From assembly GCF_004010195.1 (NCBI RefSeq), contig NW_025213777.1:1-35977 (forward strand): a stretch of 35,977 bases of DNA, given 5' to 3'. Shown piece by piece: positions 496 through 32,414 of the stretch (position 1 is the stretch's first letter; each line of letters starts with the position of its first letter). The notes beneath the pieces are model-generated. The model was not told the origin of the DNA. It saw only the letters and a list, made by a program, of their open reading frames with translations, and ran no database searches. The DNA comes from Chiloscyllium plagiosum. Lineage: Eukaryota. The translations under genes were made by a program, and so were the position numbers.

Positions 496-586
496 ATCAC
501 CTGATGAAGGAGCAGTGCTCTGAAAGCTAGTGCTTCCAAATAAACCTGTTGGACTATAACTTGGTGATGTGTGATTTTTAACTTTG
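496..586 (+). mobile_element. PLE pseudo-LTR 3' fragment (family B)
   Basis: Nearly identical to 18578-18665 and to the reverse complement of 6660-6747 (gaaagctagtgcttccaaataaacctgttggactataac...gatttttaacttt). Confidence 0.75.
498..532 (+). ncRNA. Minimal type-I hammerhead ribozyme motif
   Basis: CAC-CUGAUGA-A-GGAGC(agu)GCUCU-GAAA-GC-UA-GUG: stem I CAC/GUG, full catalytic core, 5-bp stem II, palindromic AGCU stem III. Confidence 0.75.
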
Positions 587-1221
587 GGCCTGGACGTGTT
601 GTTGAAGTGAAGATGGACAACATCACGTCTTTCATGATAATTCTCAATGCCGGTGCCCCACAAGGATGTGTATTCAGCTCCTCACAGTTTTCCCTGTATA
701 CTCACAACTTGTGTGGCCAAATTTTATCCAAGCGCACTCTGCAAATTCGCTGATGACACCACTGTGGTGGGGTGAATATCAAACAATGACAAGTCGGAAT
801 ACAGTAAGGAGATAGAATGCTTGGTGTGGTGGTGCAGAAATAACAATTTCTCCCTCAATGTCTGCAAAACTAAAAAATTGATCATCGACATCAGGAAGAA
901 AGATGGAGGACACATCCCTATATACATTAATGGAGCTGAGGTGGAGAGGGTCAAGAGCGTTAAACTCCTAGGAGTAACGATAACCAACAATCTGCCCTGG
1001 TCCTCCCATGTAAATGCAACAGTCCAGAAAACACAACAATGCCTCTTCTTCCTCAAGTGGCTCAGGAAATTCAGCATGTCCATAAGGATCCTCACCAACG
1101 TTTACAGATGCACCATTGAAAGCATTCTGTCTGGGTGCATCACGGCTTGGTATGACAACTGCTCTGCCCAGGGCTGTAAGAAACTAAGAAGGTTGTGAAT
1201 ACAGCCCAGACAATTACAGAA

Positions 1222-1424
1222 CTGAAAATGTGCTGCTGGAATAGTGCAGCAGGTCAGGCAGCATCCAAGGAGCAGGAGAATCGACGTTTCGGGCATAAGC
1301 CCTTCTTCAGGGCTCATGCCCGAAACGTCGATTCTCCTGCTCCTTGGATACTGCCTGACCTGCTGCACTTTTCCAGCAACGCATTTTCAGCTCTGATCTC
1401 CAGCACCTGCAGTCCTCACTTTCT
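1222..1424 (+). mobile_element. Fold-back PLE terminal-repeat element (family A) with 17-bp TSD
   Basis: Near-perfect palindrome 1222-1390 plus tail to 1424; exact direct repeat cccagacaattacagaa at 1205-1221 and 1425-1441; matches the 3' end of the Penelope element at 20197-20328. Confidence 0.9.
1279..1312 (-). ncRNA. Hammerhead ribozyme core (stem I broken by inversion junction)
   Basis: Minus strand reads CUGAAGA-A-GGGC(uuau)GCCC-GAAA-CG-UC-GAUU. Confidence 0.6.
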
Positions 1425-2448
1425 CCCAGACAATTACAGAAGCCAACCTCCCATCCATTGTCCCCACCCACACTTCATGTTGTCATGGAAAGGCTGCCAA
1501 CCTCATCAAAGACCCCTCCCACCCGGTTATATTCTCTTCCAACCTCTTCCATCAGGCAGCGGATCCAGAAGCTTAAACACACGTACCAACAGATTCAAGA
1601 ACAGCTACTTCCTCACTGTTAATAGACTACTGAGTGGACCTCCCTAATTTCAAATCTAATGATGATCTTGCTTTTGTGTACCTCCTCTGCAGCCATAACC
1701 CTGTATGCTTCACACTGTTTGTCCCTGTATATTATGATCAGCCTGTACTGCACACAAAACAAAACTTTTCACTGTAATTAGGTACATGTGACAATAATAA
1801 ATCTAATCAAAGTAATCTGTTGGCTGAAAGTAGTGTTTTGTCAATCATGGCTTGCTATCAGATAATCTTGTAACACTTGCCCTTGTGTTTAATTTGAAAT
1901 TCATGAGATATCATTGAAATAAATGTCAGATTGCCAAAATACTTGGCTTAAGTCCCTTGAAAATCCTCTTGTATTTATTTTACTGGAGGTTGATGTCCCT
2001 TTCCAACAATATTTGTAAGTATCTCTTTGATCATTTGTTTTTCTGTGTTTGTGTCCTGCATCAGAAGTTGCCTATTGTTGTACAATAAAAACATTCACAT
2101 TTGAATGGGCACTGTTTGCATTTGTGAAGGTTCATTGCTTCAGAGCACTGGCAAGGGTTTTTAGTCTCATGTCAGTCCTACTTGCTGCAATGTCTATCGT
2201 GCGAGATTTTTTGTGGTTTTATATTTCAAGCATTATTTGGATTCTGAAGATCTTCTGAGTATCTCCTCTATGTAGCTTCTGAACCTCTGCTGCACTCACT
2301 ATCTGAATGACTTTCCCCTGAGTCAGATCTCTTTTGGACTGTGATAAGTCTGACGAAGGCTCATCAATGATGTCTACAACAATCCAGTCTATTATGAATT
2401 CTGACTCACCATAATCGCATCTCTCTACGATTCTTTGAAGATCATTGT

Positions 2449-2790
2449 GGGCGGCACGGTGGCGTGTGGGCGGCACAGTGGCACAGTGGTTAGCACTGCT
2501 GCCTCACAGCGCCAGAGACCCGGGTTCAATTCCCGCCTCAGGCGACTGACTGTGTGGAGTTTGCACGTTCTCCCCGTGTCTGCGTGGGTTTCCTCCGGGT
2601 GCTCTGGTTTCCTCCCACAGTCCAAAGATGTGCAGGCCAGGTGAATTGGCCATACTAAATTGCCCGTAGTGTTAGGTAAGGGGTAAATGTAGGGGTGTGG
2701 GTGGGTTTCGCTTCGGCGGGTCGGTGTGGACTTGTTGGGCCGAAGGGCCTGTTTCCACACTGTAATGTAATCTAATAAAAAAAAATCTAA
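2449..2790 (+). mobile_element. HE1-type tRNA-derived SINE, young copy with duplicated 5' start
   Basis: A-box gtggcacagtggttag, B-box gggttcaattccc, V-SINE-like core, tail ggcctgtttccacactgtaa; gggcggcac start occurs twice. Confidence 0.9.
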
Positions 2791-2882
2791 TCAATTAATA
2801 AGATTATCCACGGATGCTGCATTCTTCTGTCAAATCTTGTTATTCCAAGAATTGTACTATTTCCAAAGTTGGAATAACTGCC

Positions 2883-3181
2883 GTGGTTGTGGATATGTTC
2901 GCTGAGCTGGGAAGTTGACTTGCAGACATTTTGTCCCTTTCTAGGTGACATCCTCGATGCTTTGAAGTCCCTATGAAGCGCTGCTGTATTTATTTGGTTA
3001 CGTTCCTGCTGCTTCCGGTTTCTGGTTCCGGTTGTTCATTGCAGCAGTTCCCAATGGGCTCCAAAGCACTGAAGACGTCACCTAGAAAGGGGATGGAACA
3101 TTTGCAAATCAACTTTTGAGCTCGGTGAACATGCCCACAGCTACAACAACCAGCACCTGAGCGACAAATCTTAGCTCAAGC
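2883..3181 (+). mobile_element. Fold-back PLE terminal-repeat element (family C), degenerate TSD
   Basis: Inverted arms about 2883-2965 and 3060-3143; decayed hammerhead gca-CTGAAGA...ggaa-cat-ttgc at 3066-3105; gttggaataactgcc (2868-2882) vs gttggaatgattgtc (3182-3196). Confidence 0.75.
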
Positions 3182-3770
3182 GTTGGAATGATTGTCAAAG
3201 GCTTTTAGGGCACCTCTTCAAATATGACTGCTGTTCTTTGAGCCGCAGGTGAACAAAAACACTGCTGCCCCAATTGTCCACAGAACTGTATTTACTTGTT
3301 CAGATTCTGACTTAGTATCCAATTCAAAAGCTGTTCAGTAACTCCAGAATTGTCTTCTCCAGAATGTCTAATTTTGTGCTTTGTTTAGTCCATCTTGGAT
3401 ATTAAATCTTCCTGGCAACACTATTTCTGATGCTGTGCCTTTGCAATGTAATCAGATTTTTTTTATCTTCTTTAAAGATAAAATATTTTGCAGCGATGGT
3501 AGTTCTTTACATTTTGATGCAGATCTGGAACATCTTCCTGCTCTCCACAGCATTAGGAGCTGTTATTGTCTGCATCTGTAATGGAACCCCTGAAAAAATG
3601 TCCATGTTCAACCAGAATGTTTACCTTTGTAAATTTCCCATGGATTATCTGTTTCAAATAACTGGGTTTGCAATGTCCCTGCCTGTCTGCTCCTGGATAA
3701 TGCAAATTGCTCTCTCTTGGCCCTCTTACTTCCACTTTTTTTCTAAATGTGCTTTGCATTATCCATGTTT

Positions 3771-4130
3771 TAGAATCATAGAATTCCTACAGTGTAGAAG
3801 CAGGCCATTCAGCCCATCCAGTCTGTATCGACCCTCCAAAGAGCATTCCAGCCAGACCCATCATCCCTCGAATCTTATTCTCTGTAACCCTGAATTTCCC
3901 ATTTTTAATCCACCAAACCTGCACATCCTTGGAAATTATGGGCAATTTAATATGGCTAGTGCGTCGAACCTGCTTTTCTTTGGACTGTGGGAGGAAACTG
4001 GAGCACCAAGAGGAAACCCACGCAGACACAGGGAGAACATATAAACTCCGCATAGACAGTCGCTCAAGCGTTGAATCGAACCCTGGTCTCGTGAGACATC
4101 AGTGCTAACCACTGAGCCACCGTACAGCAC
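3771..4130 (-). mobile_element. HE1-type SINE
   Basis: Reverse-complement match to the 2449-2790 head, core and tail. Confidence 0.85.
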
Positions 4131-4159
4131 ACATGTTACTGTGATAATGTCTGTGATAA

Positions 4160-4425
4160 TGGCAAAACCAATGTAGTGTACAAAATCCCATGCAAGGACT
4201 GCACAAAACACTATATAGGACAAACAGGAAGACAGCTAACGATCCGCATACATGAACATCAACTAGCCACGAAACGACACGACCAGCTATCCCTAGTAGC
4301 CACACACGCAGATGACAAGCAACATGAATTCGACTGGGACAACACTACCATTATAGGGCAAGCCAAAGACAGGGGACGAAACGTTTGCAACAAAAACTTC
4401 CAGCTCGGCGAACAGAACCACAGCA
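4160..4425 (+). mobile_element. Penelope-like element GIY-YIG endonuclease fragment fused to terminal repeat (family C)
   Basis: VYKIPCKDCTKHYIGQTGRQLTIRIHEH (GIY-YIG); jumps at about 4368 into gacaggggacgaaacgtttgc...cagctcggcgaacagaaccacag, homologous to 3085-3140. Confidence 0.9.
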
Positions 4426-4749
4426 ATGTCTGATCCAACTGACAACTCCTTATTTAAACTCTCACCTTTCTAGCCTGAATTACTGTGCCAGTTAAAGTTT
4501 CTCCTACCCAACATAGTTTTGTAGTTTTGACTCATCCAATCACTGCTGTCTGCTTGCTCAATGGCTGAACTCAGATTCAGGACTACTCTCAAATTCTGTT
4601 ACCTCATGAGGCAAGCCTGTACCTTCACTTGGGCGCTGCAGATTTATTCTGGGCCAACACGTTTTGAATCAGGTCTGAAATGCTTTATTCCATTCTTTAA
4701 AGTATTCTTCAGTGTTGTTGAGCATTGCCACAAGTTATTTCTACAAGAA

Positions 4750-5078
4750 GCATTGCAGAAATTCACCAAAGATCCTCATACAGCACCTTCCAAACCCATG
4801 ACTACTTCCATCTAGAAGGACAAGGGCAGCAGGTACATTGGAAGAACACCATCTTCAAGTTCCCCTCCAAAGCGCTCACCACCCTGAATTGGAAATATAT
4901 CACTGTTTCTTCACTGTTGCCGGGTCAAAATCTTGGAATTCCCACCTTAATGGCATTGTGGGTCAACTTACAACAGGTGGACTGCAGTGGTTCAAGAAGA
5001 CAGCTCATCACCACCTTCTCAAAGGAAATTAGGGACGGCCAATAAATGCTGGCTAGCCAGTGAGGCCAACACCCCACA
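4750..5078 (+). mobile_element. CR1/L2-group LINE 3' fragment ('HHHLLKGN' family)
   Basis: cagcaccttccaaaccc...caccaccttctcaaaggaaattagggacggccaataaa; homologous pieces at about 5580-5750, 16520-16945, 17915-18000, 21080-21290(-), 28735-29130, 33810-34260. Confidence 0.7.
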
Positions 5079-5081
5079 AAT

Positions 5082-5295
5082 GGGCAGTACGGTGGCACAG
5101 TGGTTAGCACTGCTGCCTCACAGCGCTAGAGACCCAGGTTCAATTCCAGCCTCGAGTGACTGTCTGTGTGGAGGTTGCACATTTGCCCCATGTCTTTGTG
5201 GCTTTCCTCCCACAGTCCAAAGATGTGACTGTTCGGTGCATTGGTCGGGGTAAATGTAGAGTAATAGGGTAGGGGATGGGTCTGGGTGGGTTACA
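5082..5295 (+). mobile_element. HE1-type SINE, 3'-truncated
   Basis: A-box/B-box head and core as in 2449-2790. Confidence 0.85.
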
Positions 5296-6624
5296 TGACT
5301 GGTGCTACTCAATTAAATTTTCAGATCCCACACTGATCACCATGTCGTATGTCCCATCATCTGTATCTTCTGAGTGTATGGGTTGTTACGGGGCTTCAGC
5401 GGTCCGTGTATGAGTGGAACCACTCTGTGGTTCAATGAGAAGAGTCTTGTAGAATAACAAAGGTAGTTATTTGCATCTCTGCAACTATTTACAGTTTGTA
5501 GGCTGTAAATTGCTCCAAAATACTGTTAGGAGGACCTAGTTTTAGATCTGTGTCCCCCAAGCTTTACACTTCTACCAAGTCAACATGACATTATCACAGT
5601 GACAGTACAGAACCCTGGAATTCTCACTGCTGTGGCTATATCTATGTCCAAGGGACTGCAGTGGCTTAGGAAGGCAGCTTATCACCAACTTCTCAAAGGC
5701 AATTAGAAATGGCAAATAAATATTGGCCCAGCCAACAATGATTATGTTTCATTTTATTAAAATTAAAAAGTGGGTGTTGCTTACCTCACTCAATTAAGTA
5801 TTAACCCCCGCAGACCCTTATAAGACATTGGGCGGCTTAAAATGTGTAGAATTAGAGGAAGTAGAGGACGAGGATTACTGAGGGATCATGAAGAAGGTGG
5901 GCCATTTTGAAGATCAGAAGCACAGAATGCAGGAGGCTGCAGGCCTGATTCAGAAAGAAACAACAGATACAATGATGTGGAGAAATAATAGTGTATCAGA
6001 GGAAGGACTGAACGTGCTCACTAAGGTTTCATAATTCATTGTGATTCCAGACGAGGTTTACTTTATTCATTTGAGTTAGTCAATAATTTGCTGAGACTAA
6101 AGCTGATTGATTTGATTCACTGAGTAGCTTGAGAATCAATTTGTGAAAGAAGGATTCATTCAGTCTTGATTTGGTGATTTAGAGTTGAATAGTGAAAAGA
6201 TCTAGTTGTGTATTAATTTATGATGTTAAATTGGAGCAGGAGGGAAGCTAATTATTTATTTGTGCATTGACTTAACTATAACACATTGCCAATCTTTTTA
6301 TGTAACATGCTTACAATCTTTTTTATTGTCCATATAATTCATTTCCAGTCCCTGTTATTCTTTATGTACACACTTCCACTCGTTCTTATTATCTCATCTA
6401 AGCTGAGGCAAGTTGGTAGCAGCTTTCCCTGCGAGATAGACAACTGTGAATTTTAAGCCTCACTCTGCAGCACCAGTGGCTAAGAGGGTGCTGCACCGCT
6501 GGAGGTGATGACTTGTTGGAGGGGACACCTCTGATATGACCAGTGCAGTCAAGTTTGGAATAGGCTTTGCAAATTGGAATTTACTTGGGATTCTAATTTA
6601 TCGATGTTGCTCAGGTACATTCCA

Positions 6625-6787
6625 TGATGTGGAGGTGCCGGTGGTGGACTGGGATGAACAAAGTTAAAAATCACACAACACCAGGTTATAGTCCAACAGG
6701 TTTATTTGGAAGCACTAGCTTTCGGAACCATGCTCCTTCATCAGGTATGAAAGCTAGTGCTTCTAAGTAAACCTGTTGGACTATAAC
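6625..6787 (-). mobile_element. Fold-back PLE terminal-repeat element (family B) with 13-bp TSD
   Basis: Exact repeat caggtacattcca at 6612-6624 and 6788-6800; inverted arms ggttatagtccaacagg...ctagctttc and gaaagctag...cctgttggactataacc. Confidence 0.9.
6713..6747 (-). ncRNA. Minimal type-I hammerhead ribozyme motif, intact core
   Basis: Minus strand UAC-CUGAUGA-A-GGAGC(aug)GUUCC-GAAA-GC-UA-GUG; all stems can pair (two G-U wobbles). Confidence 0.75.
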
Positions 6788-7023
6788 CAGGTACATTCCA
6801 GTCATGGGAAGGGAAAGTAAGTGCTTCTTTGACTTACATTACCTGTCGTCCATGTAATGATTGCGATTCAGATGACACATGGATGTTCAGGAAATCTGCC
6901 CGGTACAGAATCTCCTAACTCCTATCCATTAAATCCTCCTTAGGCCAAGCTCTTGGTGCTCCTTCAATTCTAGCTGCACAGTCCATACTTTCTGCACAAC
7001 CATTCACACTTCCTCTCAGCCTC

Positions 7024-7080
7024 ACCACACACACACTCTCACATACACTCTCTCTCACACACACACACATTTTACACACA
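7024..7080. repeat. Compound (CA)n/(CT)n microsatellite
   Basis: Directly visible dinucleotide runs. Confidence 0.85.
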
Positions 7081-8084
7081 TTCTGCATCAATTTGCTTTC
7101 TCCTCTGGATTGCTTTGAGATCTATTCTGTATTTAAGACTTAAATAGATACACGCTTTTCTTGATATCGATAGGTAACTCTGGAGTGCCCTCTTTTGGTT
7201 GCTATTTTTCTCCTTTGAGAAAAATACCATAATGCCAACCTTTTACTTGTCAAACACAATTTCGGTATCGATTTTTTAAAAACACAATTTAAATCAAAAA
7301 AGAATAGAGGTCAAATGCTGACAGAATGATTTGGGTTCCTCCATGCTCTGTTGTAGAATTGATGGATCATAGCCAGTACCTATGAAGTCCTACATCACAA
7401 ATTAATTCAGGTTATAGTGGGAAAAGTATCAAGTGAATTACATTTCTTTTCCCTATGGAAAAATCACTGACTGGTTCAAAGCTGGCTACTGGACTGCATG
7501 CATGTAGCTCCCAATAATAAAGACAGATTGTGCAGTGAAGGGCTTTAGCTTTCCTCCTGATCGTGGGGCAACAGAGGCATAGTTGAAAAATATGCTGTAA
7601 GGTAATCCACGAAAATGGTAATGAAAATACCAGTTTTTATCTGATCATGCTGAGTTAACTGGTCTCAGGAAAAGAAGCAACAATGGAACAACGTATCACA
7701 GCAATATTCACAGATTAATTTGGTGAAAATCATGGTTAAAAATCAATTAACTGGAAATGAGCATGAATGGTCATTGATTAAAAACAAGATCAGGACCTGC
7801 TAAGATAAATAATCTAGTAATACTTACATGTCAAATACAAATAGTATAGATGTCATATCAAAAGATTGCTACTTTGTCATAGAATGAATCAAATCTAGGA
7901 GAAGTTATTACTGGCTTGAAGGTACCAGTCTCACATTTACGTCAAAAGGATATAAATTTGCTGTCGCACCCTCGCACAGAACTAATGACACATTTGTAGC
8001 TGACTTTCAGTACAATGCTGTGAGAGTGCTGTATCTTCTCGGGTGGGTGTAAAATATCCCATTTTGAGAAGAAGAACAGGGGAG

Positions 8085-9095: not shown

Positions 9096-9104
9096 ATGAA
9101 ATCC

Positions 9105-11744: not shown

Positions 11745-14140
11745 ATGAATCAAGTGATAATGAGAACTTGTGAAAAGTCAGTACATTAATCATGGGTAAA
11801 TTTCATCCTCAAAAACATTGGGAAGATCAAAGAGATAGCTAGGATTCATAGAGTGTATTTGGGACAGTTTCCTTGAACAACATGTTGTGGATCCAATTGA
11901 GGCTCAATTTAGTTTAGATATGGCAATGTGTAATGAAGCAGGTTTAATGAATGATCACAGAGTAAAGGTCCCTTAGGGCCAGTGACTATAATTTGAGAGT
12001 GAGAAACTTGGGTCAGAAACAACTTGCTAAATTAGGGTAACTAGAAAGGAATGAGGGTGGAGATGGGTGGAGTGGACTGGTGCCAAAACCCATAGGCCCT
12101 TAGAGAATGAGGCTGGAGAAATAATAATGAGAAACCAGGAAATGGCATTGCAGTTGAACAAATGCTTTCCAACAGTCTTCCTGGTAGAAGACACTAATAA
12201 CATTAAAAGAAATACTAAATAATCAAGCAGCAAAAAGTGGGATAAAATAAGTGTGGTACCTGTAAGTAGAGAAAAAAAAAACTAGGGAAACTAATAGGGT
12301 TTAAGACAATAAGTCCCTGGACCTGATAGATTGCCTTCTAGAATACTAAAGATAGTGGATGCACTGGTAGCAATGTTCCGAGAATCTTTAGACTCTGGAG
12401 AAATTCCAGGGCATGGAAAAACTGGCAATGTTTTTATTCAGAAAGAGAGGGATTCAAAAACAGGTAACTATAGGCCAGGTAGCTTATATCTGACATTAAT
12501 AAAATGTTAGAGTTTATTCTCAAGCATGTATTAACAGAGCATTCAGGAATACATAATAATATCAGTCAGAGTCAGCATGGCTTGATATGAGGCAAATCAT
12601 GCCTGAGAAATTGATTAGAATTCTTTGAGGAGATAACAAGTGGGTGGATGGAGATAAATTAGTTGGTGTAATAAAAATCATAGGACCTGTAGAAATGATA
12701 CAGCACAGAGTGTGGGGGTGGCGGGGCATTCAATCCATCTTGTCTATGTCTTCACCCATAGACAGTCAGATGCCCTTTCTTAACCCATCTTCCTGCACGA
12801 AGCCCATTGCCCTGCAGCTTACAGCATTTGAGATGCAATCCAAATACTTTTAAAAGGGTTTAGGGTCTCAGCTTCCAACACCAACCCAAACACCAAATTC
12901 CAGGCACCCTCCACCCTCTGTGTAAAAATGTTTTTTCTGCTCATTCCCTCTAATCCTTTTGTCACTTAGGTTGAATCTTTGACTGCTGGATTTTTAACTT
13001 TCTGCCAAGGGATACAGATTCCCTATCTATTCTATCTCTATCCCTCACAATTTTTTATACCTCAATCTTGTCACCCTTCAGCCTTTTCTGTTCCAAGGAA
13101 AACAACCCCAACCTCACCAATCTCTACTTGAGAGATATCATATTTGCATTTCGAGAAGGAGTTTGACAATTAACTGCCACTTATTAAGTAGGAGCCTGTT
13201 CTGTCATACCTAATATATTAGCATGGATAGAAGATTGACTAAATAATAGAAGACAGAGAGGTAGGATCAGTGGGCATTTTCCATTTAACTACAGGGATCA
13301 GTGCTGGGGCCATAATTAGTTATAATATTTACTAATGGCTCAGATGAGAAAAGTGAATGTACTATACCCGAGTATTGTTAAGGTGGCTAATGACATCAAA
13401 GTGAGTGGGAAGGCAAACGATGAGGGTGGTTCAAAGAATCTGCAGGGGAAGTATAAATAGGTTTAAGTGAGTTGACAACAACTTGGCAGATGGAATGTAA
13501 TGTGAGAAATATATAATGGTACTTTGGCATGAGGAATAGAGAAGCAGAATATTATTTAAATGGAGAAAGACTGTGGAAAGCTGCAGCACAGAAGAACTTG
13601 GGTGGTCTCATGCATAAATCACAAAAAGGTAGCATTGAAATTTAGTGAGAGATGTACTGGCATTAGAGACAGTCCAGAGAAGGATCACTGGACTGACACT
13701 GGGTATGAAAGGATTTCATGTCTTATGAGGAGAGATTGTGTAGTCGTTGGATTTTTAGAAGAATGAAAGGTCACCTTATTGAAACATGCAAGATTCTTAG
13801 AGTCTTTACAGGGTAGATGTGGAAACATTGTTTCCCTTTTGTGGGAGAGTCGAGGATGAGAGGGAATATCTCAAAATATCTCCTATTTAAGACAGAGATG
13901 AGGAGGGATATTTTATCTCAGAGGTTAATGAACCTATCGAATTCTTTCCTGCAGAGATTTGTCAAGGTTGCATCATGATTTATATTCAAAGATGAAATAG
14001 ACTTTTAATTTGCAAAAAAGTCAAGGGTTATTGGGAAAACACAGGAAAGTGGAGTTGAGGATAATTGGATCATGATCTCGATAAGTGGTGGAGCAGACTC
14101 TCAATGGGCTGAATGGCCTATTTCTGCTTTTCCATCTTTA
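11745..14140 (+). mobile_element. Old, highly decayed CR1-type LINE ORF2 and 3' UTR
   Basis: Remnants of KSPGPD (aagtccctggacctga), GNYRP, SQHG, QGSVLGP, WQMEC, and tail aatgggctgaatggccta; nested CR1 at 12676-13128. Confidence 0.75.
12676..13128 (-). mobile_element. CR1-type LINE 3' fragment nested in older CR1
   Basis: Reverse complement has agagattggtgaggttggggttgttttccttggaacagaaaaggctgaagggtgacaagattgagg and a ctgtgctgtatc tail. Confidence 0.75.
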
Positions 14141-14290
14141 GATAATAAGGAAGGTGTATACAGAGAAATGTGTAAATGTGATGTACATTAATTACTGATT
14201 CAACATTCAACAAGGTATTCCTATTGAACTTACTACAGATAATAAGAGCTTGTGGTGTATACAGTTACACATTAGCCATGGATGGAGGAT

Positions 14291-14556
14291 AAGAAGAAAG
14301 TGGGGACTGCGGATGCTGGAGATCAGAGTCAAAAAGTGTGGCACTGGAAAAGCACAGCAGGTCCGGCAGCACTCAAGAAGCAGGCACAAACTACACAACC
14401 TCTCCTCATAAGACATGAAATCCTTTCATACCCAGTCAACTTTTCAGGCATTAGCCCTTCATCAGGAATATCTGAGGCTTATGCCCAAAATATCGACTCT
14501 CCTGCTCCTTGGATGCTGCCTGACCTGCTGTGCTTTTCCAGTGCCACACTTTTCCA
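14291..14556 (-). mobile_element. Fold-back PLE terminal-repeat element (family A) with 14-bp TSD and internal foreign insert
   Basis: catggatggaggat (14277-14290) and catggatagaggat (14557-14570); minus-strand CUGAUGA-AGGGC(uaau)GCCU-GAAA at about 14441-14469. Confidence 0.85.
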
Positions 14557-15097
14557 CATGGATAGAGGATTGCTTAGCTAACAGGGAGCAGAAAGTAGGA
14601 AATAGGTTTTTATTGTTGACAAACAGGTACTGTTGGAGTACCAGAGGGATCAGTGATGAGTCCTCTCATATTTATGATTTATTTCAATGATGTGGATTAC
14701 TGTGAGTGTTTACTGAATTTACTCATGACACCAGAGTAAGTTGTCAGTAGGAAGGAGAGAGTCTGTGAAGGATAATAGACAGTTAATATGAGTGGGTAAA
14801 ACATAGGCAGCTATGAACAAACCCACTTTGGCAGAAAGAAAAGCAAAGCAGTGTATTATTTAAATGGATAGTGATTACAGGACATGGGTGGTATAAAGGG
14901 ATCCTAGTATATGAATGAAACAAGTTGGAATGTGGCCACAGCAAATGACAAGGTGGGTAAGTGAGATAACAGCCATTATTGCTAAGGGATTGCAATATAA
15001 AAGAAGTAAAATATTTCTATAACTTGTGCAGCAGATTGCATTTGGAGTACTGTATACTATTTTGATCTCCTTATTCAGGAAGGAGATAAGTACATTT

Positions 15098-18010: not shown

Positions 18011-18666
18011 CATGTAGAATTCTGAGCTCAAAAACTGCATGAATTTATGTAAAACTCTGTTATCTCACTTTTTAGATTAAAATCAATCTGACCATCAGGT
18101 CATAGACAGAGAACACAGGGGGCTAACACCTTCAACACATTGTCTAGCTATCACCATTGTTAACAGCTAACCCGAGAATGCAACTTTAAACAAAAGGTTT
18201 TGTGATCTACATACATTCATGAATGTATGCATGCATTCATGTAGAATTCTGAGCTCAAAAACTGCATGAATTTATGTAAAACTCTGTTATCTCACTTTTT
18301 AGATTAAAATCAATCTAACCATCAGGTCATAGACAGAGAACACAGGGGGCTAACACCTTCAACATATTGTCTAGCTATCACCATTGTTAACAGCTAACCC
18401 GAGAATGCAACTTTAAACAAAAGGTTTTGTGATTTACACATGAAAGAAGTGAAACTATCACTGTATTCTAACAGATGAAAGGCTTAACAGACAATCAATT
18501 TTTCAATGTATAATTTCAGTTACATCACACTGCAAATTTTTGCTATAAATTCTGTGTTACGATTGAGCCCTCCACTATCACCTGATGGAGAGTCACTCCG
18601 AAAGCTAGTGTGCTTCCAATTAAACCTGTTGGACTATAACCTGGTGTTGTGTGATTTTTAACTTTA
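18011..18666 (+). mobile_element. PLE 3' region (family B) with internal ~200-bp direct repeat and mutated hammerhead
   Basis: 18011-18211 nearly identical to 18238-18438; cacctgatggagagtcactccgaaagctagtg at 18579-18610; 3' end as 496-586. Confidence 0.75.
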
Positions 18667-18976: not shown

Positions 18977-20328
18977 CTTCCTCCAGACCAAAGGGGTAGC
19001 CATGGGCACCCATATGGGCCCCAGCTATGCCTGTCTCTTTGTTGGCTACGTAGAACAGTCCATCTTCCATAATTACACCGGCACCACTCCCCACCTCTTC
19101 CTCTGCTACATTGATGATTGCATTGGTGCCACCTCGTGCTCCCACGAGGAGGTTGAGCAATTCATCAACTTCACCAATACATTCCACCCTGACCTTAAAT
19201 TTACCTGGACCATCTCTGACACGTCCCTCCCCTTCCTGGACCTCTCCACCTCCATTAATGATGACTGACTTGACACCGATATTTTTTACAAACCCACCGA
19301 CTCCCACAGCTACCTGGATTATACCTCTTCCCACCCTACCTCCTGCAAAAATGCCATCCCCTGTTCCCAATTCCTCTGCCTCCGCTGTATCTGCTCCCAG
19401 GGGGACGGGTTCCACCACAGAACACACCAGAAGGCCTCCTTCTTTAGAGACCGCAATTTCCCTTCCCACATGGTTAAAGATGCCCTCCAACGCATGTCGT
19501 CCACATCCCACACCTCTGCCCTCAGAACCCACCCTTCCAACTGTAACAAGGACAGAATGCCCCTGGTGCTCATCTTCTACCCTACTAACCTTCGCATAAA
19601 CCAAATCATCTGCCGACATTTCCGCCACCTCCAAAAAGACCCCACCACCAGGGATATATTTCCCGCCCACCCTTTTCCGCCTTCCGCAAAGACCGTTCCC
19701 TCCGTGACTACCTGGTCAGGTCCACGCCCCCCTACAATCCACCCTCCCATCTTNNNNNNNNNNNNNNNNNNNNNNNNNNNNNNNNNNNNNNNNNNNNNNN
19801 NNNNNNNNNNNNNNNNNNNNNNNNNNNNNNNNNNNNNNNNNNNNNNNNNNNNNNNNNNNNNNNNNNNNNNNNNNNNNNNNNNNNNNNNNNNNNNNNNNNN
19901 NNNNNNNNNNNNNNNNNNNNNNNNNNNNNNNNNNNNNNNNNNNNNNNNNNNNNNNNNNNNNNNNNNNNNNNNNNNNNNNNNNNNNNNNNNNNNNNNNNNN
20001 NNNNNNNNNNNNNNNNNNNNNNNNNNNNNNNNNNNNNNNNNNNNNNNNNNNNTTCCTTTCCACCTATCCACTCCACCCTCCTCCCTGACCTATCACCTTC
20101 ATCCCCTCCCCCATTCACCTATTGTACTCTATGCTACTTTCTCCCCACCCCACCCTCCTCTCATTTATCTCTCCACCCTTCAGGCACTCTTCCTGTATTC
20201 CTGATGAAGGGCTTTTGCCCGAAATGCCGATTTTACTGCTCCTCGGATGCTGCCTGAACTGCTGTGCTTTTCCAGCACCACTGTAATCTAAACTCTGGTT
20301 TCCAGCATCTGCAGTCATTGTTTTTACC
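18977..20328 (+). mobile_element. Penelope-like element (family A): RT fragment, gap, 3' terminal repeat
   Basis: QTKGVAMGTHMGPSYACLFVGYVE, CYIDDCIG, LKFT, LPFLDL, then YLDYTSSHP..CKNAIP; in-frame stop at about 19266; terminal repeat with attc-CTGATGA-agggcttttgccc-GAAA-tgcc at 20197-20228. Confidence 0.9.
19754..20052. other. Assembly gap (299 N)
   Basis: Run of N; smaller ambiguities at 22601-22604 and 27965. Confidence 1.
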
Positions 20329-20410
20329 CAACAGTGCTAACCACTGAATCACCTTGCTGCCCCAGTGGCATGGGACTCTCCCACTTTCCTACATCACCTT
20401 AGTAGATACA

Positions 20411-23697: not shown

Positions 23698-23699
23698 AT

Positions 23700-24172: not shown

Positions 24173-24442
24173 AGGGTGGCAAGGTGGATCAATGGTTAGC
24201 ACTGCTGCCTCAGTGCCTGGGTGACTGTCTGTGTGGAGTTCGTATGTTCTCCCTGTGTCTGCATGGGTTTCCTTCACGTGTTCTAGTTTCCTCCCAAAGT
24301 CCAAAGCTGTGCAGGTTAGGTGGGTTAGCTGTGGGAAATGTAGGGTTACAGGGATACGGTAGAGGGTTGAGTTTGGGCAGGTTGTTGGTGGTTGGTGTGG
24401 ACTCGATGGGCTGATAGAATCCCTACCATGTGGAAGTAGGCC
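24173..24442 (+). mobile_element. HE1-type SINE with inverted terminal 29 bp
   Basis: Head and core on plus; 24414-24442 is the reverse complement of the expected tail. Confidence 0.8.
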
Positions 24443-25014
24443 TAAGTATTATGCCCAATCCTAGGCACTGCACTTTGGGAAAAGTGTGAAAGCTTTAGAG
24501 AGGGGGCAAAGAAGACATTGGAGAATTTCTCTGGAGATGTGGAACTTTAGTTCTCTGTGGATAGATTGGAAAAGCTGGGGTTGTTCTCAGGAGATTTCAT
24601 ACAGGTGCTCAAAATGAAAAGGGATCCTCCGAGGTGATCAACTGAATAGGATTTATCATCCTCATTGCACATAATCCAGATCTGATTCATTTAAACCGGC
24701 ATTTGAGCAACAAAATCTTGCATTTGTCTTTAGACCCAGTAAAGTCCCCCACCATGCCCCCTGGGGCTGCTAGCAAAATTTGATCAAACTGCATGAAGGT
24801 ATCTGGGAACAGGTGGGTATGTGGGAAAAGACACAGAGATTCGGGTGAAGTTTAGAAAGGATGGGAGTGGAAAACTGGTCAGGATAGTAACTCTTATGCA
24901 ACTTTTTTGTTGGGCCAAATGGCCTGTTTCCACACTGCAGGGATTCTATGATTTCTGCTTAGCCTCGTTACTGAACCAAGCATTTTACAGTCTTGTTTTG
25001 TGACTATATTACAA

Positions 25015-25290
25015 CAACTATAACTTGCATTTGTAAAGCACCTTTAAGGAACCAGGATTTACCAAGATGCTTTACAGAGTGTTTTGAGACAAATGTGACA
25101 CCAAGCCACCTAAAGAAGCATCATAATCGGCTCCCAAAAGCTTGACCAGAGAGGTAAGAGTTAAGTCTTCCTTTAAAGTAAGAAGAAGAGGTGGACAGCT
25201 GTAGGGAGAGAATTCCAGAGCCCACGCAGCAGACGGCATAGCCGCCAATGGTGGGCGATTAAAATCCAGGATGCTCAAGAGGCCACTTAG
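25015..25290 (-). mobile_element. L2-type LINE 3' end
   Basis: Minus strand ends taaaggtgctttacaaatgcaagttatagttgttg, a typical L2 tail. Confidence 0.65.
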
Positions 25291-26220
25291 AGAGTTTTTA
25301 AAGTAATATTGATTTTGATGCGTTAATTGGGATGCATTCCATGAGCGGTGGATGAGAAGGCATCCTGGTAATGGGCTGCACAATGCACAGCACATTGCTG
25401 GAAGGGTTAGTTACTGTGCGATGGGATCTGTGGGAGGTAAAAGCAACAAGTCAGTTTCAATTTTCCCTAATCTCTTTTAATGGCTCCGTTAAAGCTGCTG
25501 TGCTAAACCAGTACTGGGTGTAAAGGGTGACATTAGCGTCGGTAATCAGCACTGGCCTGAGAAATTCATTATCAGTCTTTAACTGATTCACCAATCTCAG
25601 TGTTTGACTAGATGGAACACCACTAATTACAGGGCTTGATTAGTAATTATGTACTAATGGTTAGAAAATCGAATAGGTCTGATTTGTAATTCTTTTTTTA
25701 TGTTTTTTTGTTTGAATGCTTGGAGTAAACCATGATTATGGGATGCAGCAAGAGGCAAATCTTACTTACTCAGAGTATAAGAAATAAAGCATTACTTCCT
25801 TTTTTTAAAAATTGAGAAACACAAGATGAATGGTAAGGGGTCCCAAGGGCAGGTTGCGACCACATTTGAGCAGAGCAGGAGATACAACAACTTAAATCAG
25901 GATGCCCAGGGCTACCAATGATCCCAGACTGTGGGGAGTCTCTCAGAATTAAAGATTAATTCCCAGGTCTCCTCTGGGAGGAAGTCAGGAGGTCAATCAC
26001 CATGGCGATAAATGAAAAGGTGTGCTTTCTTTGACATTGTTCGATCCGTTGTAAAATCGTCAGAGTTGGGTGCAAAGGTGAAAAGAGACAGCTCATGTTC
26101 CAATTGGCTGAGGAGGTGGCGCCCAATCAGTTGCTCGTTTTGGGTGACCAATAGGAGGACACCTCGTGAACCGGTCAATCAGTAGTGTCAAAGTCAGTGA
26201 CACAAACCAGAACACTGACG

Positions 26221-28218
26221 CCCGGATCTGACTTTTGTACGTCGCTGCAGAGTGTCTGGTTAAAGTTAACGGGTCCCTGACGGCGCCACTTCGCTTTGGG
26301 AGAGGAGTGCGTCAAGGCTGCCCCCTGTCCGGCCAGCTGTATTCCCTGTGCGTGGAGTCTTTCCTGCGCCTCTTGCAGAGGAGGTTGTCGGGGCTGGTTC
26401 TGCGCGGGCAGGGTTGTGGTCCTCTCGGCCTACGCCGACAACGTGCTCCTCACTTTCACCGACTCGGCTGACCTGGGGAGGATGCGCGAGTGCCAGGCCA
26501 TGTACTCGGTAGCGTCTTCCGCCAGGATCAACTGGGCCAAATGTTCCAGACTACTGGTCGGTCCGTGGCAGGTGGACTCTCTGCCGGAGGAGTTACAGGG
26601 GTTCAGCTGGAGAACCACCCATCTCCTCTACCTGAGGAATCCTGGCCGGCCAACTGGCAGGAGCTGGAGGCCAAAGTCTCAGCTTGTCTAGGCCGCTGGA
26701 CAGGACTGCTCCGAGTGCTATCTTACAGGAGTCGAGTGCTGGTGGCCGCCATGCTGTGGTACCGGCTGGTCACTTTGGTCCCTCCTCCTGGCTTTGTCGC
26801 TGACATCCAGAGAACGTAGGTCAACTTCTTCTGGGACAAAAAGATGCGCTGGGTCGCCGCGCAGGTTCTGAGTCTCCCTATTGAGGAGGGTGGTCAGTCG
26901 CTGGTGTGCGTCCGCACCCAGGTCGCGACGTTCCGCCTTCAGGCCTTGTGGCAATACCTTTACGTCGAGCCTCCTCCTAGGTGGTGCGCCCTGGCGAAGT
27001 ATTTTTTCCGCCAGGTGCGTAACCTCAACTATGACACGCAGCTCCTGTTCGTCGACCGTGACGGTTTGGAGGTCGCCCTCAAGACGCTGCCTGTCTTTTA
27101 CCAGGACCTGATCACTGTCTGGAACATGGTCGAATCGTGCCGCACCTACCCTCCGCTGGAGTAGCGGCTGTCGTCAGGGAGCCGTTGCTCAGGAATCCGC
27201 ACCTCCGTACTCGCGGGTTCGAGTGGCTGTCGGAGGGGAGGGCCGTGGCGGCGAGGGTGACCAGGGTCGGGGACGTGCTGGGTGCCGGGGGCCTTGGCTG
27301 GACGCTGCCGCAGGACAAAACGAGCAGGGCAGCGTTAGACTTCCGGTTCGTGGCCAACGCCACCCGACGCCTTAAAACGGCGGTGCTCGGACCCGACGTA
27401 GTGCACCAGTTGGAGGACGCTCAGGTGTGCGGTGGGATCCCGTCCGCGCTTACCCCAGCCCGGAAGGAATTTCACATTGGCCCCAGGGTCCCGTACTTCC
27501 CGCGGGAGCCTGTGCCCCACAACCTGAGCCGCCTCCGAGACTTTAATTTTGTTTTGTTTAGGCAGGTGATAAGGAGAGCCCTGTACCGACTGCTGCTGCA
27601 CACCATCCACCTCTTCTCCCGCATCCACCGTCCGGACACGCCTTGGCGTGCCCATTTGCCACCGGGCGGTGGGGATCCCCAGTGGAGGGCTCTCTACGCG
27701 GGAGTCCTCCCCCTTTCTCTCGGGGATCTGGGGTGGAGGGTGCTGCACGCAGCAGTCCCCTGCAACCGCAGATTGCGGTGGTTCACGGACTCCCAGCCCA
27801 ACTGCTTGTTCTGTGGCGCTGTGGAGTCCGTGGACCATGTATATATTGGGTGTGGGCGTTTGCACTCCCTTTTTGATTTCCTTAAAAACCTTCTCCTCTG
27901 TTTTTGGCTGCACTTCAGTCCCACGCTCCTGATCTTTGGGCACCCGGTACGGAGAAGGGAGGGCNCTCCAACTCTATTTTGATTTAGTCCCTACCCTCCC
28001 CTTCACTGTTTAATCACACAGCACTGCCTTTCGTGAAGGGCACTACTTGTCACTGGCCACTCGGGTGTTTTCCTATCTTCCTGGTGGTGGAAATTGAATA
28101 AAGATTCATGCACCTTATGTCTCTCACTGTGTCTCACACCTGCACACACACAACATGGGTGCTGGGGAAAAAATAAGCACTACCGCAGTTAGGCGGTAGT
28201 GTGGGGGGTTAAAAAAAC
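26221..28218 (+). mobile_element. Tx1 (L1 group) LINE, 5'-truncated, with poly(A) and TSD
   Basis: GRGVRQGCPLS, SAYADNV (mutated YADD), LSLPIEEGGQ, C-terminal CLFCGAVESVDHVYIGC zinc finger; AATAAA 28097; A-run 28211-28217; TSD ccagaacactgacg 26207-26220 and ccagaacaccgacg 28219-28232; several frameshifts. Confidence 0.92.
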
Positions 28219-28249
28219 CCAGAACACCGACGTTTTCCAACCAACTTGC

Positions 28250-28420
28250 TCAGAGACATTATGACACACCTCTGGAGTAGTTGAGACATGACCTGGATCT
28301 CCCGGTCAAAGGGAGATCTGTGCTGTGCTGTAGGAGTCTGTGACTCTATGACTGTAAGTGGAAGGTGATATCTCTCATGAAATGGAAATTCACACTACCA
28401 CCATTCGTGAGAGCCCCCTC
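28250..28420 (-). mobile_element. Decayed tRNA-related SINE-like repeat interrupted by templated insert
   Basis: ttatgacacacctctggag...cacactaccacca...gagcccc flanking 28323-28389; recognised by resemblance only. Confidence 0.45.
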
Positions 28421-28734
28421 AAACCAGACCACAATCAACCCATCCATTCACAGGTTGGGGGTGGAGGTGGGGAGGGGAAGGGGGTGTGGTGTGGGGTGGT
28501 GCAGAGGCAGAATGAATTGATTAACCTCCAAACTTGTAGCCTGCATTCTGGTAGTTCCATCACTTATTTGGTACAGCTCGCCATCCTGAAAAGGGCCATT
28601 GCAATGATAGCATTAACTTGCTCACCTTGGCCATCTTGCGTGAATTAATGTAGCATTTACATACCATCATTCATGACCTTAGAAAAGTCCAAAACACTTT
28701 ACAGTCAACTTACAATACTAACCCCCACCCCCCA

Positions 28735-29130
28735 AGGCTCCTATGAAAGGATCTTCCAAACTCCTGTGACCTTTACCTTCTAGAAAGATAAAGGCAACAG
28801 GCACATGGGAACACTAGCCCCCCTGCAAGTTTCCTTGAAGCCACTCACCATCCTGTCTTGGAACTATATTGCTGTTCCTTTAGTGTTGTTGGGTCAATAT
28901 CCTGGAACACCCTCCCTAACATCTTTGTGGTGTACCTACACCAAATGGACTGCAGACATTCAAGATGGCAGCTCACTGCTCCCATCTCCAGGGCAACTAG
29001 GGATAGGCAATAAATACTGGCACTGCCAGTGATGTCCACATCCCATGGACGAATTAAAAAATGGTGAATCACTACCACATTCTCAAGGGCAATAATTATT
29101 GGCCCAGTCAATGATACCATTTCATGAATG
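28735..29130 (+). mobile_element. CR1/L2-group LINE 3' end with repeated tail
   Basis: Homologous to 4780-5075; tail occurs twice (about 28960-29060 and 29068-29130). Confidence 0.7.
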
Positions 29131-29339
29131 GATGATTAAAAAGTACTTCTGAAATATGGTTGTGGTTCTATCCCAGGAAGTGCAAAATCCAGCTTGTCCA
29201 CAGCATTGTTAGAGATTTCCATTGACTGAGATGCTGAAGAGAGGTTTCTATTCATCTTCACATCGTAGCCAGAATTACAGTATTTACATCCACTGAAAAG
29301 GCAGATTTCCATTTCATGAGAGATATCACCTTCCACTTA

Positions 29340-29705
29340 TAGTCATAGAGTCACAGACTCCTACAGCACAGAGACAGGCCCTTTGGCCCAAACTGGTCTC
29401 TGCCAACCAAATTTCTGTCCACACTTACCGCATTTCCCTGCACTTGGCCCATATCCTTCTAATCCTTTCCTATCCATAAATCTGTCCAGATGCCTTTTAA
29501 ATGTTGTTAATGTACCTGCCTCAACCACTTCCAGTGGCAGCTCATTCCATGTGCTCTGTATAAAAAAGTTGTCCCTTAGATTCCCTTTTATTCTTTCCGC
29601 TCTAACCTTAAATTGATGTCCTCTAGTCCCCAACTCTGGGAAAAAGACTGAGTGTATTCACCCTATCCATGCCTCTTATGCCTCTATAAAGTTCCCCTTC
29701 AGTCT
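29340..29705 (-). mobile_element. CR1-type LINE 3' fragment
   Basis: TRGHQFKVR...WNELPLEVVEAGTLTTFKRHLDRFMD; tail ctgtgctgtaggagtctgtgactctatgact. Confidence 0.88.
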
Positions 29706-29939
29706 CTTAGTAATTGGCCATATTGCTATTAAATAATGTCCCAACTTATTACTTTGAACTGCGCCTAATGCACTCATTGGATCTGGGGATCAGTGTTAAA
29801 TCCAGCATTATTGCCCATCTCTAATTATTCTTGAACCAGGTGTTTTGTTGAGCCTTTTCAGAGGGCAGTTAAGAGTCAACCACATTGCTCAGGATCCAAA
29901 GTTGCATGTAGACCACAAAGATTTTAGATGTCATTAAGT

Positions 29940-30318
29940 CAGAGAGTCATAGAGACCTACAGCAGAGACAAGGCCCTTCAGCCCATCACGCCCTCACTGG
30001 TCAAAAACAACCACCAACTATTCCTAACTCCATTCTCCAGCACTTGGTCTATAGCCTTGTATTTATTGGCATCTCACCATTTCTTCAATATTATGAGAGT
30101 CATGAAGGACCTGAACCAAATAGAGAGGAACTGTTGCTGTTGGCAGAAGAATCAAAAACCCAGAGGAGATCAGTTTTAAGCTGTTTGACAAATGAGTCAC
30201 CACTAGCAGGATGAGGGTGGTTCGGGTCTGAAACACACTACCTGAGCATGGAGTGATAAAGGCTTCAATCATGGGTTTCAAAATTCAATTAGATAATTTA
30301 TTGAAGAGAAAAGAATTG
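29940..30318. mobile_element. Two adjacent CR1 fragments (29940-30090 minus; 30090-30318 plus, resuming about 31040-31135)
   Basis: CR1 tail agagtcatagagacctacagc on minus; plus-strand piece ends with ctcccttctgtgctgtaacc after the nested insert. Confidence 0.6.
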
Positions 30319-31030
30319 AATTTAGATTTAGACTTTATTGCCACATGTACTCAAGTACAAAGGTACAGGAGCGAAACGTTTTCAATGTTGCCACACACGG
30401 CGCCATATTAGGTACAAGCACCTCGATACAAAAACATAAGAAGAAGGTAGAAAGAAATAAGGAACAAAGTTAAAGGTTAAACATTATGGTTACTCTTAAG
30501 CATTGCATAAAAGTAAAGAAATAAAGTTAAAAGTTCTATCAATGAAGTCTTTCTTAAATGCTTAGCCATGCTGGGATCGCATTTCTTACAACAGCTCGAT
30601 TTCCTGCACTTTGTAATGCTCTCCCTGTACTGGGTCAACCTCCCCTGCTCTCTCATCATTGCTGCAGATGTCAGGGGGGGATCCTCCATCACCACGTTGG
30701 GTTTGCTGTTGGGATCTCAGATTGCCAAAGCCTCAGTCCAGTCCTTGGCCTTACCTTCTGTCCGTGTGCCGATCCTTGGGTCTTGTCTTTGGTCTGCGTG
30801 CTGAGCATTGAGAACTTACCAAGAGTCCTGCATCAGGCCCCAGCTGCTGCCTCACACTGGTCATCTAGCCAACCATCTAATTCAACGAGCCGCTGCTACC
30901 TCTCTCCAGAAGGTAAGTTTGTAGGGAAAAAAAACTAATAAAAAACTAAAACTAAAATGAAGGAAAAAAACGAGAAAACAAGAAAAAGGAAGAGAAAAAA
31001 GAAGAACATACAGAGCGGATGAGCCTACAT
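30318..31030 (-). mobile_element. Non-autonomous element with Rex1/Babar-like 3' end
   Basis: Minus strand: T-rich tract, aacttaccttctggagag, 3' gtacttgagtacatgtggcaataaagtctaaatctaaa, similar to the LINE tail at 1765-1810. Confidence 0.65.
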
Positions 31031-32184
31031 TTTGCAAATATTGCAGAGGATTAAGAATAAATAAGTTCTCTTGCAGAAAGTTGGCACAAACACAATGGAC
31101 TGAATAGCTCCCTTCTGTGCTGTAACCATTTTGTCTATAATAAGGATGTGGCACATTGTTGATTGATGTTGTGAGGTGACTCTATGGCTCCAGTGAAACA
31201 AGACGTAGGGAAAAATGATTTTCCTCACAACCATCTCAAACTCTCCCCCAGAATTCCACCAACACAGCCTTCGGTTGCAAGAGATCAAAGAATACGGTAG
31301 CCAAAGATTAATCTTGAAGAGCTCTGAAAAAATTACCAGTGTTAAAAAAAATGTAGATGGTGGATGGAGCTCCAAACCAGGATATTAATGGTCTCGTCAA
31401 GGAGAATACAATGAGCTCTGAAACTCAGCCTTGCATTATTTATAATTATACATTGAATGTAATCACAGAAATATTCTTGCCTGCAAATTGAAAAATGGTG
31501 AGTGTGTTTACCAGTGATCACTGGAGTTAGCCAGTATTTAAACAAGATAGCCATGATCTAGTTGGGAACGCAATGAGGTGGGTTAAGTCATTCGTCAAGT
31601 CCAAGTATACAGTAACAGTTTCACTCACTTTACTTTTCCACCAGTCTTTTCTAACAGTAATTGAGGTTTCTGCTCAGGAAAATGGTGCAGTTTATGAGAT
31701 AATGGTTACTTGTTGTGAACATTAAGAATATCAGAGACTTGGAATCTGTTGCAAATAGGACTTCCAGAACCAAGAGTTTGCAACAAGAAACTTGAGATCC
31801 ACAGGCAGTTAATGTCGAGATTTCCCCCACCTTAACAACTGAATCCATTTTGATGGGGTTGAATTAGTCCTGTCTTTTTAAAATTTTGATTCATTGTGAG
31901 ACAGTGTTAGCCAATTAACAACATAGATCAGCCTTTTAAATATTGTTGAGACACATGTTTTGTCCTGGCAATTGTATAAGAACATTTCAGCTTTTAAGAG
32001 ATTTTGATGGTGATTACATTTTTCTAATTCTTTTCTCTCATTATCAAGACCCTGAACAAAATGGTTTTGATTTTGATCAAAGCCTGAAGCAGAAGACTGT
32101 TAATCATTTCTAGAATGGGGGGGCCGTACTCTCTGTCCCAGAAGCTATCCCAGTGACATCTCCAAGACTACAGCACCACTAAAA

Positions 32185-32247
32185 AAATGAGGCTGACACT
32201 CCTGTGCAGTACTGAGTGGGTGCTGCACTGTCGGAGGCACTGTCTTA
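32185..32247 (+). mobile_element. Deu-domain SINE fragment (SacSINE1/AmnSINE1-like)
   Basis: ggctgacactcctgtgcagtactgagtgggtgctgcactgtcggaggc; weaker related pieces at about 6470-6510 and 33140-33350. Confidence 0.6.
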
Positions 32248-32262
32248 CTGGTCAGAGAGTAA

Positions 32263-32414
32263 GGCAAAAGTGAGGACTGCAGATGCTGGAAACCAGAGTT
32301 TAGATTAGAGTGGTGCTGATGAAGGGCTTTTGCCCGAAACGTCGATTTTCCTGCTCCTCGGATGTTGCCTGACCTGCTGTGCTTTTCCAGCACCACTCTA
32401 ATCTAAACTCTGGC
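32263..32414 (-). mobile_element. Fold-back PLE terminal-repeat element (family A) with 10-bp TSD
   Basis: cagagagtaa at 32253-32262 and 32415-32424; inverted arms ccagagtttagattagagtggtgctg and cagcaccactctaatctaaactctgg. Confidence 0.9.
32316..32347 (+). ncRNA. Hammerhead ribozyme core, perfect consensus but stem I lost at junction
   Basis: CUGAUGA-A-GGGC(uuuu)GCCC-GAAA-CG-UC-GAUU. Confidence 0.65.

Follow-up and report, generated by a model that had tools for sequence, protein, structure and literature searches.

Short Penelope-like insertions in a shark genomic stretch and a probable 5′ edge in front of their predicted hammerhead

Endonuclease-bearing (EN+) Penelope-like elements (PLEs) of the Neptune and Poseidon types have been described as leaving 5′-truncated copies with an adjacent inverted Penelope-like terminal repeat (pLTR), a one-sided tail of 30-40 bp and a target-site duplication (TSD) (Craig 2021, PMC8557442; Arkhipova 2013, PMC3846280; for these and for the papers on the anole element and on retrozymes, our statements refer to the sections drawn upon). 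Minimal hammerhead ribozymes are found mostly solo, with some pairs lying 100-700 bp apart on opposite strands (PMC4209133). With the anole Poseidon element PAc, both target strands were nicked and extended in vitro, the reverse transcriptase (RT) started at two internal sites, accounting for the tail, and uncleaved RNA was the main template; 5′ truncation of the RNA shortened the product, and hammerhead mutants left the insertion band the same (Frangieh 2024, PMC11167929). Retrozymes are short, non-coding and pLTR-related, carry type I hammerheads, and form head-to-tail tandems that yield circular RNA (Cervera and de la Pena 2020, PMC7229834; Li 2026, bioRxiv 10.64898/2026.07.22.740005). Here, we analysed a stretch of 35,977 nt from the shark Chiloscyllium plagiosum (contig NW_025213777.1; hereafter the window), in which short pLTR insertions mostly end just in front of a predicted hammerhead. 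How PLEs replicate is still poorly understood.

Arm ends of the short insertions

Self-comparison and TSD searches recovered 11 PLE-derived insertions of four families in the window. All five copies named in a preliminary description of this DNA, which had proposed that truncation and fold-back junctions cluster at the hammerhead, are short pLTR insertions. Our evidence comes from the window, from a read alignment to one pLTR and from control fold-backs of other organisms. Positions are numbered from the C of CUGANGA as +1, and standard hammerhead topology predicts cleavage after +28 in family B and after +29 in family A.

The proposed clustering is upheld in part. The furthest 5′ end lies within about -10 to +5 of CUGANGA in six of the eight short insertions, all in a single 11-nt interval, while three arms miss this edge (+37, +73 and about -97). 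Compared with simulated smooth decays, the scan-corrected p ranges from 4e-5 to 0.007 (0.0004 at the fitted exponential mean, 0.007 for the steepest decay). The edge is also the stopping point in five of the seven core-bearing family A and B insertions. The shorter arms (81-94 nt) and the longer ones (119-132 nt) have starts 35 nt apart and yet a common end, which ties the stop to position and not to length. The edge is the 5′ border of the ribozyme, not the cleavage site (+28) and not the 3′ foot of the stems, and the positional signal, modest in size, is probably genuine.

The tail-less solo stub of family A on the plus strand (496..586; -5 to +86, core at 501-525) begins about 5 nt before the core, as had been described: its homology to the copy at 18577 starts at -5. 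That start rests on homology across subfamilies and is bounded to about -27 by the neighbouring 311-473 insert, and a TSD search at 496-586 found none. All four named fold-backs combine a one-sided tail of ~35 nt, an inverted 5′-truncated arm and a TSD of 13-17 bp. In the family B head-to-head insert at 1222..1424 (minus arm to +88, tailed plus arm to +126; 17-bp TSD at 1205-1221 and 1425-1441), the arms meet at core and stem II, ending at -1 to +3 and at +8, with AGG common to both ends at the junction. The arms of the family A head-to-head insert at 6625..6787 (tailed minus arm to +121, plus arm to +60; 13-bp TSD at 6612-6624 and 6788-6800) meet at the core and its GAAA side, at -2 and +21/22, and those of the family B head-to-head insert at 14291..14556 (tailed minus arm to +126, plus arm to +90; 14-bp TSD with one mismatch at 14277-14290 and 14557-14570) just before the core and at stem II, at -4 to -10 and +5 to +10. 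These three junctions, too, lie where the preliminary description had put them. For the family B head-to-head insert at 32263..32409 (tailed minus arm +73 to +128, plus arm +1 to +94; 15-bp TSD with one mismatch at 32248-32262 and 32410-32424), one arm does begin at +1, joined through a common CTG, as described; the right end, however, had been placed at 32414 and lies at 32409 by the TSD, and the other arm ends at +73.

Control fold-backs were gathered from metagenome contigs (presumably animal host DNA; at least 120 loci) with a generic minimal-hammerhead pattern; among the loci listed, 32 head-to-head arrangements were called, and 31 remained once a microsatellite (L085) had been dropped. 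Weak calls were kept at L039, L080 and L090, the script missed the inverted arm of L014, and the reference-free end disagreed with homology at L023, L071 and L119. The core-bearing arms of the 31 controls end 5 to 318 nt upstream and fit an exponential with a mean of 88 nt (Kolmogorov-Smirnov p 0.82). Only one of them ends within 8 nt of the core, against four of the five core-bearing fold-backs in the window (Fisher p 4e-4). Every copy of the largest control family (22 loci among those listed) extends at least 22 nt upstream by homology, and two small families (L028, L050, L095; L057, L068, L090) begin at one fixed position upstream of the core, at a distance of about 21 nt in one family and 24 nt in the other (3/3 copies each). 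An edge is thus no general consequence of a hammerhead; in certain families, the 5′ end is fixed close to it. No two of the 31 pairs of control arm ends are alike, save the near-match L038/L119. Near-perfect palindromes with loops of 1-9 nt occur in 8/31 controls (L005, L013, L027, L043, L049, L053, L075, L115), which suggests snap-back self-priming as a second route.

The preliminary description had omitted the +73 arm, the stub at 33548, the fold-backs at 2876-3181 and 311-473, the jump at 4367 and the long copies at 18978-20328 and 18577. The family C fold-back at 311..473 (74% self-inverted repeat over 168 nt, weakly similar to family B) has a decayed central hammerhead, and its arms end about +4 and +13 from a core position inferred from the decayed motif; a TSD search there found none. 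A Poseidon-like head-to-head insert at 2876..3181, with a candidate 8-bp TSD, has arms ending about -97 and -12. The Poseidon-like fragment at 4116..4430 (plus strand) carries a GIY-YIG coding piece (Pfam E 0.017, under the cut-off; tblastn E 2e-9) fused directly to about +16 of the hammerhead at 4367, which may reflect an internal deletion or a template jump. The family B solo stub at 33548..33605 (plus strand; +37 to +95; candidate 9-bp TSD) lacks the hammerhead core. The pLTR at 18577..18665 (plus strand), of a second family A subfamily with a decayed core at 18582, was treated as a long copy that putatively runs further upstream. Just 5′ of it, at 18011-18438, lies a 201-nt direct duplication (99%) that may be a partial tandem of the family A 3′ untranslated region (UTR) or an assembly artefact. 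The 1222-1424 insert sits within a decayed long interspersed nuclear element (LINE) at 587-1800, which adjoins the 496 copy and which we take to be Rex1/Babar-like.

Read depth and other explanations of the edge

The long 5′-truncated family B element at 18978..20328 (plus strand) served as reference; it comprises broken RT C-terminal coding sequence, an assembly gap at 19754-20052, a pyrimidine-rich 3′ UTR, the hammerhead at 20201-20232 and a tail to about 20328, the 3′ end being set from loose read ends. Four read runs were aligned to 20053-20345 at 88% likeness; the contigs represent two species, and X21 and X22 are one sample. The alignment took in 1572 raw RNA reads from X21 and 0 from X22, and 75,618 and 64,668 contigs in the two species. 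In the plus direction, X21 depth was level at 33-52 across 20073-20192 and then reached 120 and 187; at the same point, contig depth rose 4.3-fold in one species (1.03 to 4.45 million) and 4.9-fold in the other (1.55 to 7.51 million). This 4-5-fold rise at 20197..20205 (plus strand), which holds the 5′ strand of stem I and the start of the core, fits the window, where most core-bearing family A and B insertions stop at the edge. None of the 40 differences listed (147 more exist) is a variant at 20215, a position diagnostic of subfamily, which suggests that the step comes mostly from reads of the reference's own type. A second depth rise, at 20236, was rejected as a breakpoint, being a clip from private mutations of the reference.

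Several points weigh against a fixed 5′ edge. The sample is small (n=8 short insertions in the window), and when only TSD-bounded insertions are counted, four of six lie at the edge, with p 0.003-0.07, or up to 0.17 with a 16-nt interval. The depth step coincides with conserved stem I, and some contigs, after running through diverged sequence, pick up the reference again at 20196-20199 (at least five in X1, whose joint counts are lower bounds, and two in X12, for example); subfamilies therefore share stem I and differ upstream, and the homology edge contributes to the step. The 126 loose ends at 20197, with an agreement of 0.64, probably come largely from one expressed locus; a variant at 20224 is found in 91/345 reads of one direction and 1/178 of the other. 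No pile-up of read starts was seen anywhere in X21, cleavage site included, a poly(A) single-cell library being a weak test of this. Four junctions (+16, +21, +29 to +35, +37) are located within a stem or at its 3′ foot. The controls belong to other lineages and were chosen for an intact core. Lastly, a start directly in front of the hammerhead is no general rule: in Drosophila virilis, the Penelope start site precedes the motif by ~120 nt, with a 46-nt exon and a 75-nt intron, the latter reaching to helix I, in between.

One explanation would dispense with a special edge altogether: the copies are short, the hammerhead lies 60-130 nt from their 3′ ends and conservation ends at stem I, so that geometry and homology would produce the pattern. 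The small sample, the TSD-bounded test, the subfamily joints and the three arms that end elsewhere all agree with it. We nevertheless find it improbable, because the junctions were bracketed reference-free and differ in position from those of the controls, and because the depth step appears mostly in reference-type reads.

The preliminary description had instead held that the ribozyme fold sets where the RT stops or switches template, and a protein-bound dimeric hammerhead might act likewise. Junctions do occur at the 3′ foot of stem II (6748, +21/22), inside stem II (4367) and at the foot of stem I (the 14291 insert and 33548); 17 of the 31 control second arms end within -10 to +35; and the two sides of the best-supported strand-switch joint, 20197/20236 (5 reads; 21 and 27 contigs), bracket the motif. 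A stall should leave ends at +21 or +33, because the RT meets the fold from its 3′ side, whereas arms end most often at the 5′ border, by which point the entire motif has been copied. By our estimate, a smooth decay starting from 3′ ends at a distance of just 50-90 nt would give roughly the observed control second-arm ends, which are therefore largely a matter of geometry, and the control first arms, with the exponential fit given above, show no edge. The anole RT products, moreover, were the same with core mutants (PMC11167929). The 20197/20236 joint has an alignment clip point on either side and was for that reason also rejected as proof of an identical junction. A stall at the fold thus appears unlikely, and the preliminary description placed the edge correctly and most likely explained its cause wrongly.

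It had also been suggested that a short or circular retrozyme-like RNA served as template, or that the palindrome is mobile in its own right. The predicted motif is of the minimal type I and its stem III is palindromic, the inserts fold into long hairpins, and circular RNAs, demonstrated for tandem retrozymes (PMC7229834), have also been suggested for PLEs (PMC4209133). Across 20248-20324, individual contigs of high depth connect the 3′ end of the pLTR with +48 to +52; they lack the core and may represent short pLTR-derived tandem arrays that have no hammerhead. However, such an RNA should leave head-to-tail hammerhead repeats or ends at +29, and none of the 11 insertions in the window is a tandem of this kind; same-strand cores lie kilobases apart, and on a circle the RT would continue into tandem copies rather than stop at -5. 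The junctions of all six fold-backs in the window differ, no independent loci among them sharing one, and the TSD and the short-arm microhomology are particular to each named fold-back. Among the 15 of 84 joints listed for X21, none was the back-joint of a circle, for which the poly(A) library is poorly suited. We consider a circular or palindromic master very unlikely.

Finally, self-cleavage could set the ends if the RT ran off a cleaved 5′ end at +29, at times jumping the cut. The long arm of the 14291 insert is broken at +29 to +35 by 47 nt (14390-14436) copied from 13698..13744 (plus strand; 46/47 identical), the sole strong match in the window, so that this arm switches to a foreign template 1-7 nt from the cut, and the 33548 stub begins 8 nt past it. 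The donor is a LINE-like stretch ~650 bp away from the insertion point just past the predicted cleavage site. The earlier claim that the inserts span this site is borne out for most arms, namely both arms of 1222 and 6625, the short arm of 14291 and one arm of 32263; it fails for the other arm of 32263, which breaks 45 nt past the site, and the long arm of 14291 carries the interruption just described. As most arms span the site, the template was mostly uncleaved, in keeping with the preliminary description, and the shark stubs speak for a hammerhead that is, as a rule, still uncleaved at the time of copying. With no read pile-up at 20228/9 either, and with the 20236 rise explained by clipping, we regard run-off at a cleaved end as highly improbable.

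Proposed insertion mechanism

We propose that the insertions are ordinary target-primed PLE insertions with short complementary DNA (cDNA) that runs off at a fixed RNA 5′ end, an explanation which, taken whole, we rate slightly above an even chance. The element protein would nick both target strands 13-17 nt apart, as shown in vitro for the anole element, and the RT would start inside the RNA at two places, near +126 to give a tailed arm and near +90 to give a tail-less one. Each nick would prime one cDNA, the second aided by 4-5 nt of target-RNA homology, and the cDNA ends would join via 2-3 nt of inverted microhomology, so that the palindrome would be rebuilt at each insertion. These first two steps, nicking with internal RT starts and then the priming and joining of two cDNAs, are very likely. 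As a third step, which we hold to be evenly balanced, the cDNA of families A, B and C would usually run off where the RNA ends, at a fixed 5′ position a few bases ahead of the hammerhead. Arms that stop earlier would be ordinary premature ends, and the ribozyme, copied uncleaved, would mark the front of the RNA without itself stopping the enzyme.

The 3′ ends of the short arms bear on the priming of the second cDNA. Over four inserts, the first five TSD letters match the continuation of the element past the short arm at 15/20 positions (5, 4, 4 and 2; binomial p 1e-5), and the tail-less arm ends share 4-5 nt with the target duplication (32410-32414, 6788-6792, 1217-1221); this homology suggests annealed priming by the second nick. 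In the 1222 and 32263 inserts, the tail-less arm extends further 5′ than the tailed arm. A single snap-back from the tailed arm cannot give these two inserts and was rejected.

Most likely, this fixed RNA 5′ end would be where transcription begins in the 5′ pLTR, since the place at which the RT starts is likewise near the 5′ end of a transcript that runs pLTR-open reading frame (ORF)-pLTR. An initiator scan (YYANWYY) of the reference copy found no match at the edge. A pyrimidine-rich tract with an AG, resembling a splice acceptor, occurs at 20140-20184 in family B and at 18531-18567 in family A, its AG ~17 nt and 15 nt 5′ of the core, respectively, and recalls the D. virilis intron. A spliced template was rejected as the cause of the edge, since no copy ends at the acceptor-like AG or carries an exon.

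More tentatively, and with some doubt on our part, most shark Neptune-type stubs may be complete run-off copies, comparable to 'strong-stop' cDNA, of RNA beginning at stem I. The RT would then start near the 5′ end of the transcript, or on a dedicated hammerhead-headed RNA of ~130 nt, and a cDNA jump to the 3′ part of the transcript would regenerate the pseudo-long terminal repeat (pseudo-LTR). Schostak, writing in 2008, reportedly saw no obvious mechanism for this regeneration step. If the edge is the RNA 5′ end, very many shark stubs record template starts and would map PLE transcript starts family by family; it would also link internal initiation as seen in vitro to the architecture of inverted pLTR plus tail, and offer a testable route to the pseudo-LTR. 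If the edge is geometry only, the stubs are ordinary retroelement debris.

Family membership and comparison with described systems

In tblastn, the coding sequence at 18978-19750 matches the PLE proteins P0001 and P0002 of Chiloscyllium punctatum with 84-87% identity. Both of these score above the cut-off for RVT_1 and just under it for GIY-YIG (E 2.5e-4), and GIY-YIG is above the cut-off in P0012; the endonuclease part of family B itself falls, in the window, inside the gap of Ns. The closest relative, P0001, has a Cx4Cx2C linker, which fits the Neptune CX2-5CxxC between RT and EN. Because its relatives carry RT, GIY-YIG and this linker, family B is classed by sequence as a Neptune-type EN+ PLE. 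Families A and C, to which no RT-EN ORF is attached within the window, are assigned as putative PLEs by hammerhead, tail and TSD. The pLTRs contain a minimal hammerhead, with the core and a stem II of 4-5 bp in seven copies, and pattern matches in the window number 9 against 2.55 expected. The ribozyme is a predicted one, its stem I having only 3 bp and its isolated folds not forming the three-way junction, and an Rfam scan of the window returned chance hairpins and no hammerhead match. Shark-specific patterns had 0 matches among viral and metagenome contigs. Elsewhere in the window, the minus strand of a 40-nt tandem repeat at 34547-35683 gives chance CUGAGGA..GAAA matches free of further hammerhead features, and 26281-27982 holds part of a Tx1/L1-like LINE whose coding sequence is broken and weakly matches zf-RVT.

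In L1 twin priming, the second nick primes through short homology to the target, and cDNAs joined by microhomology give an inversion whose arms cover adjacent parts of one RNA. In the shark inserts, by contrast, both arms cover the same 80-90 nt.

Inverted 5′-truncated pLTRs, tails and TSDs are already known (PMC8557442, PMC3846280), as are solo and opposite-strand minimal hammerheads (PMC4209133) and, in vitro, the uncleaved template (PMC11167929). For a fixed edge in front of the hammerhead we found no report in the literature searched; subscription papers, Repbase or Dfam entries or supplements may describe it. The new part is the third step, in which cDNA of families A, B and C would run off at a fixed 5′ end. 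The shark copies resemble EN+ PLEs in their head-to-head arms, tail on one arm, TSD and junction microhomology, and in the RT with C-terminal GIY-YIG of the relatives; in the sections of those accounts drawn upon, truncation is variable and a fixed edge at the hammerhead front is not stated (PMC8557442, PMC3846280). With the minimal hammerheads of PMC4209133 they share CUGANGA, one extra base, stem II, GAAA, a palindromic stem III and a short stem I; that study did not map breakpoints relative to the motif, and cleavage of the shark motif is a prediction. Unlike retrozymes, the shark copies are solo or head-to-head and carry minimal motifs. The likeness to anole PAc would lie in two-strand priming, two RT starts giving the tail, an uncleaved template and a length set by the RNA 5′ end. 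PAc belongs to a clade other than that of family B, and, in the sections used here, inverted junctions were not reconstituted and homology between primer and start site was absent, whereas the short arms of the shark share 4-5 nt with the target in three of four inserts.

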